Shown: in pieces, positions 8,707-20,953 of the stretch | Layout: each line of letters starts with the position of its first letter | Position numbering within the stretch: the stretch's first letter is position 1 | Assembly: GCA_048938385.1 (NCBI GenBank) | Contig: JBHLMG010000032.1 | Location: forward strand, 1 to 20,953 | Length of the DNA: 20,953 nt | Direction of reading: 5' to 3' | From: Promethearchaeota archaeon | Lineage (GTDB): Archaea; Asgardarchaeota; Hermodarchaeia; Hermodarchaeales; Hermodarchaeaceae | Translations under genes and position numbers: made by a program | Notes under the pieces: generated by a model | What the model was told of the DNA's origin: nothing | The model's database searches: none | Seen by the model: the letters and a program-made list of their open reading frames with translations, nothing else

Positions 8707-9219
8707 TTAGGTTCCGGCGAGAATGCTACGCCAAGAATCAATCTCTTCAAGTAGCCCCTCACGATGTTTATCACTGAGATCTTGGTTGATTTTATACGAT
8801 TCTAGAGTGCGGATCCACCGAGCCCAAGGTCCCATGAGGCGTGGGTCATGTCCAACTAGCCGATGGGATAGTTCTCGGCGTTTTCGCATGGCGTTTAGAA
8901 TGTCCACAGCACGTGTGAATCGTTCGATCTCGCGGCGCATTGCATCGACTTCGTCAAGAGCGGGATTAGTTCCATACGAATCGGAATTTTGGGTGAAACG
9001 ATCCAGGATGGCTTCTACCTCATTTGGTTGAAGTGAAGCTGCACGCGTAGCTTCTTCGAGAATCATAAGCCCCTTTTCGAGGATGGCTGTAACGAGAACC
9101 ATTTTATTTTGCGCAATAACATTTGGTGGATGATCTAATGTTTCAGTGCATCCCTTGACGAGTTTCTCAAGGGCTTTATGATGCTCACGTACTTCCTTTT
9201 CGTATGACAAAGAATTCAC
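8707..9219 (-). CDS. Hypothetical helical protein (170 aa); C-terminal part resembles the Vps28 C-terminal domain
   Basis: WIRTLESYKINQDLSDKHREGLLEEIDSW aligns without gaps to WRNQLQGRDPKETLSAEEAKQLEFQAVRW of the in-window Vps28. The true start may be the TTG three codons downstream, with AGGTGA as SD. Confidence 0.7.
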   Translation of the reverse strand: MNSLSYEKEVREHHKALEKLVKGCTETLDHPPNVIAQNKMVLVTAILEKGLMILEEATRAASLQPNEVEAILDRFTQNSDSYGTNPALDEVDAMRREIERFTRAVDILNAMRKRRELSHRLVGHDPRLMGPWARWIRTLESYKINQDLSDKHREGLLEEIDSWRSILAGT

Positions 9220-16123: not shown

Positions 16124-16954
16124 GTGATACTGATGAACATTTTAAACTCGGAACTCGAGCAACGGATCACAGAAGAGGTTATCACACCTATTCTTCAAGG
16201 TGACTTCAAAACCGTGTTCGAGAGAACACCCACAATCCTTGATGCCCTAATCGGGAACATACCACCAAATCGACGGAGCTCTTATGGGCGGGTACATGCA
16301 ATCAAAATTCTAAGCCAACATCTGTTCATCGAGCTCTCTAACCGGCAAGTAAGAATTTTGGATGTAGCATCGGATCTATTCAGGCAAACTCAGGAATCCC
16401 GCAGCAAAGGCGTTTGGCTAGGAGTTCTCTCCCATTTTGGGCTAGAAGAATTCCAACCGGTTCTCCCGATTTTTAGAACTGCCGCTGCATCGACGAATTG
16501 GGAAATCCGTGAGTTCGCTCAAATGCTTTTCCGTAAAATCATCAAAAGACACCCGAATGCAGCACAGACATTTCTCCTGAATCTTGTCAGTTCAAAAGAT
16601 CCCAATGTCCGTCGGTTCGTTGCTGAAACATTGAGGCCTGTCCAAGAGAATCAGTGGTTTTACACAAATCCTGAGTATCCTCTTCGTGTTCTACGCCATC
16701 TTTTTACCGAGAAAGTACCTTATGCTCGAACCTCTGTAGGGAATAACCTTAGTGACCTAGCTCGTCGTATTCCTGACTTGGTTTACACCCTCATAGGCGA
16801 ACTGGTAGCAAGCGAGAATAAGGACTCCTTTTGGATTGCCTACCGTGCTTGCCGTAATCTTGTAAAAACAGATCCTAAAAAGGTCATGAAACTTTTAGGT
16901 GTGAAAGAATACCGATACAAGTCTCGTGTATATTCTCTCAGCGACTATGAATGA
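16124..16954 (+). CDS. DNA alkylation repair protein, HEAT-like repeat (AlkC/AlkD superfamily)
   Basis: NWEIRE, DPNVRRFVAETLRP, YARTSVGNNLSDLAR; start may be the ATG at 16133. Confidence 0.8.
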   Translation: MILMNILNSELEQRITEEVITPILQGDFKTVFERTPTILDALIGNIPPNRRSSYGRVHAIKILSQHLFIELSNRQVRILDVASDLFRQTQESRSKGVWLGVLSHFGLEEFQPVLPIFRTAAASTNWEIREFAQMLFRKIIKRHPNAAQTFLLNLVSSKDPNVRRFVAETLRPVQENQWFYTNPEYPLRVLRHLFTEKVPYARTSVGNNLSDLARRIPDLVYTLIGELVASENKDSFWIAYRACRNLVKTDPKKVMKLLGVKEYRYKSRVYSLSDYE

Positions 16955-16983: not shown

Positions 16984-18321
16984 CTAAGGAACCTTCCCCA
17001 CCTTCCAAAGCGCATCAGGAATGAGGTTCGTCGTATCCACCAGATGGTTTTTATAAGCTTTAAGCTGGGTCTCAGCTTTTCGAAATTCCTGGTGAGGTGC
17101 TATCAGGATGATGCAATCAGCTTTCAGGGCTTCATCAAAGGATGCGGGCGAAAATCCCATTGCGCTTATTTCTGAATTCGAGAAATAAGGGTCGTATGCT
17201 AGAACCGCGTTCGGTTTGTACCTTTTGAGATATTTTAGGATTTTCAGACTTGCTGCGAATCTCATTTCTTTGACATCTGCTCGAAAGGAAACTCCCAACA
17301 AGCTAATTTTTGAATCGTTAACTGATTTTCCTTGAGCGTTAAGGCAGCGAATAGCGAGCCCTACTGTATGTAAAGGCATGCCATCGTTAACAAACCGGGC
17401 GTCAAGGAGTAAACTAGGATCAACACCAAGTTCTTGGGCTTCATTGATGAGGAACCAAGGATAGACTGGAATGCAGTGTCCACCAACACCAGCACTAGGA
17501 CGGTGGATTTGGCAATGCTCACTGGTACCCTTATTTGCTATGCTTATCACTTCCCAGACATCGATCCCCAAGGGCTCGCACAGTTTGGCTAAAAAGTTCG
17601 CGTAGCCAATGTTCACATCACGATAGGTTCCCTCCGCCACTTTAACAAGTTCTGCGGTGAGAAGTGAAGAAGTTCTAACAACTTCACCGAAAACGGCGTA
17701 GATCCCTGCGGCGGCTTCTGTGCTGGCTTGATCGATTCCTCCTACAACCTTAGGGAACTTGTAGAGGTTTCTCATCACCCGGCCAACCATGAGGCGTTCA
17801 GGACTATGCGCTAGACCAAAGTCTCTACCCGCCTGCAAGCTGCTAGCCTTTTCAAGAGTGGGTTTTACCACCTTTTCAGTGGCTCCAGGTGGCATGGTAG
17901 TTGAAGTAATTACCAGGCCCCCTTTCTGAAGACCTTTTCCAGCATCTTCTGCTGCGCTGCGAATTATCGAGTAATCCTCTTCTCCGGTTTCATCAACTAA
18001 GAGGGGGACAAGAAGGATGATGACATCGGACACCTTCGCGGCGGCTGTACCATCCGTGGTTGCTCGAAAACGGTCCAGTCTAATAGCTTCTTTGAGCAGT
18101 TCTGAAATATCAGGCTCGTCAACGAGGGGTGATATCCCATTATTGATTTGGTCTACGACATCCTGTTTCCGACGGACTCCCACTACCTTTGCACCTTCCT
18201 TTGCAAAGGCCAGCGCCATAGGAAGCCCCATACTTCCGATGCCAACCAAATCGATGGTGACTTTTCCCTGGCGTAGTAGCTTTTGCGCCTCGTCAGCTGG
18301 CTTCCCGTAGATTTTGACCAT
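16984..18321 (-). CDS. Nucleotide-sugar dehydrogenase (UDP-glucose/UDP-ManNAc/GDP-mannose dehydrogenase family)
   Basis: Rossmann GIGSMG, STTMPPG, SPERL, AELVKVAEGTYRDVNI, catalytic GVGGHCIP, YDP. Confidence 0.93.
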   Translation of the reverse strand: MVKIYGKPADEAQKLLRQGKVTIDLVGIGSMGLPMALAFAKEGAKVVGVRRKQDVVDQINNGISPLVDEPDISELLKEAIRLDRFRATTDGTAAAKVSDVIILLVPLLVDETGEEDYSIIRSAAEDAGKGLQKGGLVITSTTMPPGATEKVVKPTLEKASSLQAGRDFGLAHSPERLMVGRVMRNLYKFPKVVGGIDQASTEAAAGIYAVFGEVVRTSSLLTAELVKVAEGTYRDVNIGYANFLAKLCEPLGIDVWEVISIANKGTSEHCQIHRPSAGVGGHCIPVYPWFLINEAQELGVDPSLLLDARFVNDGMPLHTVGLAIRCLNAQGKSVNDSKISLLGVSFRADVKEMRFAASLKILKYLKRYKPNAVLAYDPYFSNSEISAMGFSPASFDEALKADCIILIAPHQEFRKAETQLKAYKNHLVDTTNLIPDALWKVGKVP

Positions 18322-18493: not shown

Positions 18494-19051
18494 GTGTCCT
18501 CTGAATCACCTAAATACGCTATTGAAATAGAAGCCATCAAAACACCTAAGGGGTTAGTGCCAACCGTTGAGTCCCTGAAGCGGATTGTGAAAGGTCTGAA
18601 CTTATTAGATTCAGATCTGGGACGGATGAATCTCAAGATGGAAGCCAATATTCGCGCACTCCTTCGGGAGGTGAAAACGCTTCAGAAGCTGGTAGCTGAT
18701 GATACCATTGCCTCAGAATCTTCTGTTGAGCAACTTGGAGTTCTAGCTACGCAATTTGATTCCTTTGAAAAAACCCTTAAGAAAGTGATTAAGGAGAAAC
18801 CCACTGCTAGTCCCAAGGACTCCCTGAAGGAACTTCAAAAAGAACTTGTACCCACACTAACCTTGACCGTACAGCGGCTCGAAGAAACCATTGCCCTCTT
18901 TGAAACGCGCTTCGAAGAATTCCTTCGTGAACTCCAAAGTAATATTCTTGTAACAGTCCGACAAGCCGTGAAAAGTGAAACCCCAAAGGAGATGGTGACC
19001 TCGAAGCCAGAGCCCTCTGCAAAGCGAAAAACTAAGACTACTTCAAACTGA
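18494..19051 (+). CDS. Hypothetical coiled-coil protein (185 aa) upstream of the ESCRT cluster
   Basis: Long ORF with heptad-patterned helices and a Lys/Thr/Pro-rich tail; TTAAAA TATA-like element at 18439-18444. Confidence 0.8.
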   Translation: MSSESPKYAIEIEAIKTPKGLVPTVESLKRIVKGLNLLDSDLGRMNLKMEANIRALLREVKTLQKLVADDTIASESSVEQLGVLATQFDSFEKTLKKVIKEKPTASPKDSLKELQKELVPTLTLTVQRLEETIALFETRFEEFLRELQSNILVTVRQAVKSETPKEMVTSKPEPSAKRKTKTTSN

Positions 19052-19136: not shown

Positions 19137-19892
19137 ATGGCACAGGCTGTACGAAGTTCCCAAGAATTATCAATTGCTCGTGAAGCACAATTGATGTTTC
19201 GCAGAGCACCCACCTTTACTCCAGTCGGATCCAATCTTCGTCGTTGGCGAGGAAAAATCAAAGGTGGACCGCGAGGTAAAGATGAGTTTCTAGTCGAAAT
19301 AATTGTGCCCCCGAATTTTCCTGCTCAACCGCCAGTCGCCCGAATGCTTTCACCCACTCAGCATCCTCGAGTTGACTCTGAATCAGGGGCCATCCACCTT
19401 CGGATTGTTACACAGTGGCAACCTCATTATCATGTCTACCAAGTGGTTAACAGTATCAAGGGCCTCTTTGCTCGTGAGCCCCCTGTGCCCGATCAAACTC
19501 GAGAAGCTCCTAAAGTAGAAATGCCTCCAAAGGAGGAGGTTCTACAGCAACGCTATCAGCAACTAGAACGTGAAGTTTCTCGGCTCACAAAGAAAATCCA
19601 AGATCGTGATGAACGAATCGCCCGCATGAATGCTCAAATTGATACGGGTTCCATTACGACAGGTGAAGTCACCGAGGAAGAGGAACTAGATGCCTTAATT
19701 CTTCCAACGGATCCGAAGGAACGCGAACGCTTAGAACTTGAAAGTGAAAAGTTAGCGATTGAAGACCTACTCCAGAATCTTGAGCAGAAATTCGATTCAG
19801 CTGAGATTAACTCTACAGAGTATACTAAGCTCTATAAACGGTATAAGAAGCGCCTGTATCAAATCGATAAGGCTCTCGAGCGCTACACCTAA
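19137..19892 (+). CDS. vps23: ESCRT-I Vps23/TSG101-like protein (UEV domain, Pro linker, coiled coil, steadiness box)
   Basis: E2 fold WRGKIKG..NFPAQPP..HPRVD..GAIHL..WQP with His in place of the catalytic Cys; coiled coil YQQLEREVSRLTKKIQ; steadiness box EKLAIEDLLQNLEQKFDSAEINSTEYTKLYK. Confidence 0.88.
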   Translation: MAQAVRSSQELSIAREAQLMFRRAPTFTPVGSNLRRWRGKIKGGPRGKDEFLVEIIVPPNFPAQPPVARMLSPTQHPRVDSESGAIHLRIVTQWQPHYHVYQVVNSIKGLFAREPPVPDQTREAPKVEMPPKEEVLQQRYQQLEREVSRLTKKIQDRDERIARMNAQIDTGSITTGEVTEEEELDALILPTDPKERERLELESEKLAIEDLLQNLEQKFDSAEINSTEYTKLYKRYKKRLYQIDKALERYT

Positions 19893-19917: not shown

Positions 19918-20562
19918 ATGGCTGTACGCGAGCGACAAAGGAAGAAGCGCAAAGCGCCCGAACTGAAGGCAGAGCTTTACGGAACCATTGCCACACTGGA
20001 TAGTATCGTTGAGAAGTTCGAGGAAGGCGATTTGAGTCCTACGCTCTATAAGCGGCAATTCAAGTCTCTTGTTCGTGATACTCTCACCACGCGGCAACTT
20101 TTAGAAAGCGAAGGTGAAAGTTGGGACGGATTCGTTCAAGAAGAAAAGATCACTGAACGTTTTCCTATGGCCATCGAAAAACTCCAAATTGGGGAACGCG
20201 CCCCGGAAGGTGAAAAAACCGTTGAGCTGCAAGCGCAAGCCTCCGCCAAAATGGCTGCGAAGGCAGCTGATATCGTTTCGGATCTTATCACCCTAATAGA
20301 TATTGCCAAACTCGGCGACGTTGCGAGGATGAGCTTAATTGTCCCCCTGTTAGATGACGCCATTATCATCCTGACCAAGTATCCTAACTTTCCTCCCGAA
20401 TACTGGATTCTCGTAAGTCTCAAGGAGTGGCGAAATCAACTCCAAGGACGCGATCCAAAAGAAACCCTATCTGCAGAGGAAGCCAAACAGCTGGAATTCC
20501 AGGCTGTCCGATGGTTGAATGATTTTAAGCGACGACTCCGAGAAATGGCGGTCGATGAATAG
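19918..20562 (+). CDS. vps28: ESCRT-I Vps28-like protein (214 aa; start reassigned from 19759 to ATG 19918)
   Basis: N-terminal hairpin AELYGTIATLDSIVEKFEEGDLSPTLY; CTD ADIVSDLITLID, PLLDD, KEW..QL...ETLSAEEAKQLEF. GAGGAG SD at 19906-19911, and this start removes the overlap with vps23. Confidence 0.88.
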   Translation: MAVRERQRKKRKAPELKAELYGTIATLDSIVEKFEEGDLSPTLYKRQFKSLVRDTLTTRQLLESEGESWDGFVQEEKITERFPMAIEKLQIGERAPEGEKTVELQAQASAKMAAKAADIVSDLITLIDIAKLGDVARMSLIVPLLDDAIIILTKYPNFPPEYWILVSLKEWRNQLQGRDPKETLSAEEAKQLEFQAVRWLNDFKRRLREMAVDE

Positions 20563-20581
20563 ATGTTGAGGCAGAAAGCTG

Positions 20582-20875
20582 ATGGCACACCCCATGCGAT
20601 CATTTGCAGAAATGCGCGAACGGTTGGTGAACGCCATCAACAAAGCTAATCTGCGTATCAACGCTGAATACATCCTAGAAGATTTAGATGTGGTTGCAGC
20701 CTTCGCTGAAGCCATGCTAGGCTCTGAACATCCAATCACCGTCGAAGCCCAAGAATGGTATCAGTATTTCTGGCAGAAATATGGACTTAACCTGTCTCAA
20801 CATGTTGAGGAGGTAGAAGCGCGACACTTTGCCATGCGGGCTGAAACTTGGCTAAATTACATCCGACAAATATGA
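20582..20875 (+). CDS. Stand-alone Vps28 C-terminal-domain-like protein (97 aa)
   Basis: Colinear similarity to the CTD of the adjacent Vps28 in three blocks (see findings); 19 bp downstream of the vps28 stop with GAGG upstream. Confidence 0.75.
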   Translation: MAHPMRSFAEMRERLVNAINKANLRINAEYILEDLDVVAAFAEAMLGSEHPITVEAQEWYQYFWQKYGLNLSQHVEEVEARHFAMRAETWLNYIRQI

Positions 20876-20888
20876 GGAGAAAATAGCA

Positions 20889-20953
20889 ATGGGATTATGG
20901 GAAATAGAGAAACAAATGGAAATGGATGCTGCCTACAAGAAAAAGCGCGTTGA
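20889..20953 (+). CDS. 5' end of a probable ESCRT-II Vps22/Vps36 (EAP30)-like gene, truncated by the window edge
   Basis: GAGGAG SD at 20874-20879, then MGLWEIEKQMEMDAAYKKKRV open to the window end. The G-hydrophobic..I...Y-K-basic pattern resembles the Vps22/SNF8 N-terminal helix and the context fits, but only 21 codons are visible. Confidence 0.55.
   Translation, partial: MGLWEIEKQMEMDAAYKKKRV

Follow-up and report, generated by a model that had tools for sequence, protein, structure and literature searches.

The 97-aa open reading frame (ORF) close to the end of the window, by which we mean the whole 20,953-nucleotide stretch of DNA that was analysed, is in our judgement (at a probability of about 0.7) a real gene of an Asgard ESCRT operon that specifies a four-helix bundle like the C-terminal domain (CTD) of Vps28 and nothing else, belongs to an old paralogue family of that domain, is equivalent by position to the asCOG cog.004115, and has been inherited together with vps28 and vps22. 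We refer to this ORF as the orphan. The gene family, as well as the idea that it forms a link to ESCRT-II, is already known (Makarova et al. 2024, mBio; PMC10936438), and the orphan is not a new kind of element. What the window contributes is one more member of the family together with quantitative support, in the form of an apparently old duplication, strict synteny and strong purifying selection. The relevant features are as follows.

18494 to 19051, plus strand: gene for a 185-aa helical, coiled-coil-like protein that heads the co-directed row before vps23 and is grouped with it by position alone

19137 to 19892, plus strand: vps23/TSG101-like gene (UEV/E2-variant domain, coiled coil and Vps23 core hairpin), called by Pfam

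19918 to 20562, plus strand: full-length vps28, 214 aa, with its own CTD at about residues 108-214 (Pfam PF03997, E 7e-15)

20568 to 20571, plus strand: Shine-Dalgarno-like GAGG, 10 nt 5' of the ATG at 20582, read directly from the sequence

20582 to 20875, plus strand: the orphan gene, which encodes a Vps28-C-like four-helix bundle standing alone (97 aa; stop codon TGA, 20873-20875; predicted helices at residues 4-24, 28-46, 51-67 and 77-96)

20889 to 20953, plus strand: 5' end of a vps22/EAP30-like ESCRT-II gene (ATG at 20889), the rest of which lies on contig C30

L003:13-747, on C30: the vps22/EAP30-like gene, 244 aa (Pfam EAP30, E 4.2e-24)

The earlier note had placed the orphan between ESCRT-I and ESCRT-II genes, and the Pfam calls on the neighbouring Vps23, Vps28 and EAP30 proteins show this placement to be correct. 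The Vps23 protein of the window matches UQ_con (E 5e-15), Vps23_core (E 3.2e-5) and UEV (E 3e-4), and the PF03997 match of Vps28, whose stop codon lies at 20560-20562, spans profile positions 2-186 of 188. This Vps28 has 37 homologues, 33 of which carry a precomputed PF03997 annotation. The orphan begins 19 nt after the vps28 stop and is followed after 13 nt by the ATG of vps22/EAP30. The window is the complete contig C47 of an Asgard-type MAG, and its last 77 nt (20877-20953) are identical to the start of C30 (L003:1-77), a contig of the same genome. The assembly break cuts vps22 in its 5' end, and vps22, vps25 and vps4 carry on in C30, where vps22 is followed by two convergent genes, vps25 (Pfam ESCRT-II, E 2e-10) and vps4 (AAA, MIT and Vps4_C domains). 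The 185-aa protein at the head of the row has no significant Pfam family, and a single-sequence hhalign comparison of it with Vps28 profiles came back blank; homologous ORFs occupy the same position in two related loci (L020:1037-1483 and L021:891-1418), and the protein could be an ESCRT-I subunit of stalk or steadiness-box type. Further upstream, in place of the ubiquitin-like gene that relatives have near the ESCRT cluster (see below), the window carries genes for a UDP-glucose dehydrogenase (16984-18321, minus strand) and a HEAT-repeat protein (16124-16954, plus strand).

Several lines of evidence indicate that the orphan is a gene. The ORF is short, lacks a Pfam family and is overlapped by a 90-aa ORF on the opposite strand, features that would fit a spurious ORF. 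With regard to close relatives, in which the earlier note had left room for the gene to be absent or decaying, whole-genome searches identified exactly one copy in each of the 18 genomes of the same family (18/18), all of them intact bar one, and the 17 homologues are 74-99% identical to the orphan and 92-97 aa long. The single exception, the copy of genome G007 (contig C3, L020:3018-3351), was the sole 'partial' match within the genus, covering profile positions 1-55, and it is broken by a run of masked or N bases within the gene and not by decay. In a wider survey of 400 genomes sampled from across the phylum, the orphan was present in all sampled genomes of families f1 (18/18), f4 (31/31), f14 (4/4), f3 (2/2), f8 (1/1) and f17 (1/1), and in 7 of the 12 genomes of f21. 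Another 75 genomes hold the gene in intact form, the G007 copy excepted, and the intact copies are all separate frames of 93-132 aa. Comparison with seven same-genus copies by the Nei-Gojobori method gave a dN/dS of 0.05-0.10 at a dS of 0.8-1.5, where synonymous divergence is near-saturated. The orphan thus codes for a protein, and the purifying selection on it is strong. Given the genome survey and the dN/dS values, the notion that it is a spurious ORF and no gene has already been refuted and retains almost no probability, and the confident fold prediction described below likewise speaks against it. A search with the family profile (A2) revealed no fused or longer forms of the orphan at E up to 0.01, which is weak evidence, and among public sequencing runs we found no RNA runs that hold the orphan stretch, the only runs that do being DNA runs from sediment and mangrove metagenomes.

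Profile comparison shows a remote homology between the orphan and the Vps28 CTD. Pairwise, the resemblance is faint: BLASTP of the orphan against the adjacent Vps28 aligned 41 positions, 12 of them identical, at E 0.018, and the identity between orphan and eukaryotic Vps28 CTD is about 15-23%, with the PF03997 gathering score not reached. Pfam returned no family for the orphan at E up to 1, PF03997 matched none of six orphan family members (distant ones included) at E up to 10, and a profile search of PDB sequences with the orphan family yielded neither a Vps28 nor any other meaningful match. Because the plain BLASTP pair is weak, the similarity rises beyond chance at the profile level only. 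When the orphan family (A2 or A4) was compared by hhalign with 14 Asgard full-length Vps28 proteins (A3), the two matched at a probability of 74-84% and E 8e-6 to 3e-5 over 85-87 columns that belong exclusively to the CTD, with orphan residues 9-97 paired with Vps28 residues 120-210, which constitute the entire CTD. The real CTD scored 35 in this comparison and the controls at most 17: the reversed CTD reached 17 (E 0.025), 30 column-shuffled CTDs reached at most 16 (E at least 0.04), and the N-terminal half of Vps28 reached 10 (E 0.42). The earlier note had recommended just such a profile comparison, and its E-value of about 1e-5 bears out the expected relationship; the colinear alignment with the adjacent Vps28 CTD that had been drawn by eye also survives, its four segments lying in the same register in hhalign.

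Searches of whole genomes translated in six frames point in the same direction. The orphan profile retrieved weak matches (per-genome E 2e-4 to 9e-3) that lie nearly end-to-end on CTDs, and the frames so matched score E 1e-52 to 1e-67 with a Vps28 profile, identifying them as true full-length Vps28 proteins. Such matches to CTDs were found in lineages without an orphan and also in a Vps23-Vps28 fusion adjoining an orphan. In the orphan's own genome, Vps28 was the best non-self match of the orphan profile, ranking second of 17,345 frames at E 0.26; in the reverse search the CTD profile placed the orphan tenth at E 5, profile-to-sequence comparison being too weak alone. An exhaustive search of representative sequences with a further profile (A1) added only four small families of 94-103 aa, one fragment and two long repetitive proteins that are apparently spurious, and at that database size it retrieved no Vps28.

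The structural predictions single out the same domain. An AlphaFold2 (AF2) model of the orphan built with no templates has four helices and a pLDDT of 83.9. In a Foldseek search of the PDB with this model, the top two matches were chains B and A of the Xenopus Vps28 CTD (2j9w; TM 0.81 and 0.80), superposing with an rmsd of 2.1 Å over 99 columns, and all other PDB matches had a TM of about 0.45. In the ESM Atlas, the nearest structure to the AF2 model was that of an Asgard 788-aa multidomain family annotated E3_UFM1_ligase/PCI/DDRGK (TM 0.88; rmsd 1.5 Å over 94 residues), with a chordate Vps28 as runner-up (TM 0.81), and the Atlas's own independent model of the exact orphan sequence gave the same two top rows. 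As modelled, then, the orphan is a compact up-and-down four-helix bundle that superposes on the solved Vps28 CTDs. The earlier note had proposed a Vps28-CTD-like bundle lacking the ESCRT-I core hairpin and had named Foldseek as one way to check it; both the AF2 fold, with 2j9w as its closest PDB match, and the low hhalign score of the N-terminal half of Vps28 agree with that proposal. The four-helix fold and the same hhalign result (E 0.42) also led us to discard the orphan as an ESCRT-I steadiness box, that is, a hairpin of the Vps23_core or Vps28 N-terminal kind.

A bundle of this sort could in principle be a generic one, HPt-like or other, whose likeness to the Vps28 CTD arose by convergence and whose role is unrelated. 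We regard this as very improbable, and it has largely been refuted already. The profile-profile and profile-to-genome matches are specific, run end-to-end along Vps28 CTDs and stand well above the controls; Foldseek and both Atlas searches single out proteins that contain Vps28-C; and the place of the gene within the ESCRT operon is fixed. As for a phosphotransfer (HPt) domain in particular, the residues invariant in a 20-sequence orphan alignment are M1, Y30, L32, E33, Y67 and W90, and no phospho-accepting histidine is among them. His50 of the orphan is kept in close relatives only and sits in the loop that joins helix 2 to helix 3. Because the family has no conserved histidine, we rejected the HPt reading. 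The orphan differs from the four-helix bundles of HPt and CheA P1 domains further in having no two-component neighbours and in showing no sequence-profile signal for them.

The orphan occupies the same place wherever its surroundings could be read. Of about 30 related loci, all those with enough flank, drawn from no fewer than seven families, have vps28 (or a vps23-vps28 fusion) ahead of the orphan and vps22 behind it, a result that answers the earlier suggestion to survey the gene between vps28 and vps22 in Asgard genomes. The spacing between orphan and vps22 is tight, some relatives having ORF calls for the two that abut or overlap. In family f4, Vps23 (UEV plus Vps23 core) is fused to a complete Vps28 in proteins of 466-489 aa that retain the CTD (L019:2142-3611, plus strand; L035:1838-3235, L037:1866-3233 and L045:3388-4806, all minus strand), and the fusion gene is still trailed by the free Vps28-C gene and then by vps22. 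Hatano et al. 2022 (PMC9192718) described a Vps23-Vps28 fusion from Heimdallarchaeota, with which this arrangement agrees. A separate observation concerns family f31, in which no free Vps28-C gene is detectable: here a longer Vps28 of 268 aa, with an N-terminal extension rich in Lys and Glu, directly abuts vps22 (L040:314-1867 and L041:1238-2791, both minus strand).

We computed a maximum-likelihood tree from 10 orphan sequences and 13 CTDs of Vps28. Orphans and CTDs are split on one branch with 100/100 support, and the lineage groups match on both sides of the split. This topology indicates that the orphan belongs to an old paralogue family and did not arise recently as a copy of the CTD encoded next to it. 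The simplest reading of the clean split and the matching lineage groups is one old duplication followed by co-inheritance. Because the tree has no root and was built from short sequences, we claim no direction for the duplication.

The earlier note knew of no described free-standing Vps28 CTD, and in this respect it was wrong. Makarova et al. 2024 (PMC10936438) report that some Asgard genomes have, besides a full vps28, a separate gene for the Vps28 C-terminal domain, and their neighbourhood table contains asCOG cog.004115, 'Vps28 protein, C-terminal region'. They place cog.004115 of Heimdallarchaeota AB_125 between EAP30/Vps22 and a UEV-Vps23 fusion, beside Vps25 and Vps4. Like the orphan, cog.004115 is a small Vps28-C-only gene at the same place in an ESCRT cluster that also holds a full vps28, and two loci with members of the orphan family (L019 and L045) share their neighbouring genes with the published AB_125 locus. 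We saw no difference in kind between the two; the published Heimdall gene specifies 78 aa, as compared with ORFs of 94-107 aa in the orphan family. From position, size and annotation, we infer that the orphan is equivalent to cog.004115.

The orphan also has relatives from which it is readily told apart. Relative to the eukaryotic Vps28 CTD (the C-terminal half of PF03997; 2J9U and 2J9W), it is detached from the N-terminal steadiness-box hairpin, has an acidic helix 2 specific to its family and lacks the basic C-terminal tail. Many Asgard multidomain proteins carry a Vps28-C domain (PMC10936438), among them cog.003822, which combines an E3 UFM1-ligase-like domain, Zn-binding domains and adaptin-C with a C-terminal Vps28-C. 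Proteins of this type are large (788 aa) and bear cargo or adaptor domains, whereas the orphan is a bare bundle in the core operon. The 788-aa E3-UFM1-ligase/PCI family found in the Atlas is probably a multidomain Vps28-C protein of the kind described by Makarova et al. Both the orphan type and the multidomain type of Vps28-C have been proposed to dock onto ESCRT-II (PMC10936438). We also observed weak matches of the orphan profile to two proteins of other Asgard families, one of 466 aa (L046:330-1730, plus strand) that is matched at its C-terminus (residues 374-461) and one of 550 aa (L047:375-2027, plus strand) that is matched near its N-terminus; these two proteins may be multidomain Vps28-C proteins of the same type. 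Interactions between Asgard ESCRT proteins have been tested by Hatano et al. 2022 (PMC9192718), in which we found no mention of a Vps28 C-terminal domain or of a four-helix bundle, and the small protein apparently falls outside the coverage of that study. A search of the literature retrieved no experimental work on the orphan family.

[quoted passage not shown] In eukaryotes, the sole activity known for the Vps28 CTD is to dock ESCRT-I to ESCRT-II (Vps36/Vps22) and to ESCRT-III of the Vps20 type. By analogy, the orphan may carry this docking of ESCRT-I to ESCRT-II and to Vps20-type ESCRT-III, and Makarova et al. (PMC10936438), arguing likewise from eukaryotes, suggest that Vps28_C contacts ESCRT-II. 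The same authors place the NZF and GLUE inserts in eukaryotic Vps36. These inserts, which are the partners of the eukaryotic CTD, were not detected in the Vps22-like protein of the window, for which EAP30 is the only Pfam match. Since Asgard Vps22-like proteins are without NZF and GLUE inserts, the partner is not simply transferable from yeast; and with no inserts of the kind to which the Vps28 CTD binds in eukaryotic Vps36, the hand-over from ESCRT-I to ESCRT-II/III in Asgard archaea is not easily explained. As a candidate for this link, a free Vps28-C subunit that is conserved readily suggests itself.

We considered what kind of subunit the orphan might be. Most likely it would be a small extra subunit co-produced with Vps22, in keeping with the 13-nt gap to vps22 and the abutting or overlapping ORF calls in relatives, and as such it might provide a second Vps28-C contact, or tune one, where ESCRT-I hands off to ESCRT-II/III. 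A more ambitious version, which we offer tentatively and consider possible at best, is that the orphan would be an obligatory, Asgard-specific extra subunit translated with Vps22 that gives ESCRT-II (or, directly, ESCRT-III) the docking surface for ESCRT-I, a role taken later in eukaryotes by the GLUE and NZF inserts of Vps36. If a docking subunit co-translated with Vps22 were indeed at work, it would represent a missing step in the evolution of the link between ESCRT-I and ESCRT-II. A complex prediction for the orphan (A4) and the Vps22/EAP30-like protein (A5) scored 0.00 against a mark of 0.32 without controls, a result that weighs neither way.

Conserved residues bear on how such a subunit might bind. 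Helix 2 of the orphan family carries the acidic motif EYILE[DE]L[DE] (EYILEDLD in the window), in place of the I-x-P-x-L-D of Asgard Vps28, and the orphan lacks the basic tail (RWLNDF[KR]RRL[RK]) of the Asgard Vps28 CTD. These differences suggest that the binding surface of the orphan is distinct from that of Vps28. They matter for another role that the free bundle could play, namely that of a competitive regulator or decoy that blocks the site at which Vps28-C docks onto ESCRT-II or onto ESCRT-III, and that thereby restricts or times the hand-off from ESCRT-I with no bridging of its own. Such a role would suit a protein that has the CTD fold without a steadiness-box hairpin to tie it to the ESCRT-I head (hhalign score 10, E 0.42) and that is always encoded alongside a complete Vps28 with its own CTD. 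However, the acidic helix 2 and the missing basic tail set the orphan apart from the Vps28 CTD, and because its surface motifs differ, competition for an identical site is not obvious; constant co-inheritance and tight spacing to vps22 are, moreover, more typical of a stoichiometric subunit. We consider the decoy role unlikely and, because the conserved motifs differ, favour an adaptor, additional or tuning, that has a surface of its own over a pure competitor for the same site.

To our knowledge, functional dimerisation of the Vps28 CTD has not been reported, which counts against the further idea that the free bundle pairs with the CTD of Vps28, or with that of a multidomain Vps28-C protein, to form a two-bundle module on ESCRT-I. 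This idea, which we hold to be improbable, has in its favour that orphan and Vps28 would be an old paralogue pair lying side by side in every orphan-bearing genome. Also on its side are the many multidomain Vps28-C proteins of Asgard archaea (PMC10936438) and the closest Atlas structure, which would come from one such family (TM 0.88).

Returning to the window and its related loci, two minor observations remain. A 170-aa ORF (8707-9219, minus strand) that had been proposed to be Vps28-CTD-like reached an hhalign probability of at most 1.2% against the Vps28, Vps28-CTD and orphan profiles, a comparison made with the single sequence, which does not amount to a refutation. Finally, a gene for a ubiquitin-like protein of 77-78 aa lies near the ESCRT cluster in four loci (L020:249-485, L021:235-471 and L018:716-949, all minus strand, and L019:722-958, plus strand), accompanied by a small Cys-containing ORF in L020 and L021 and by a ThiF/E1-like gene in L019.
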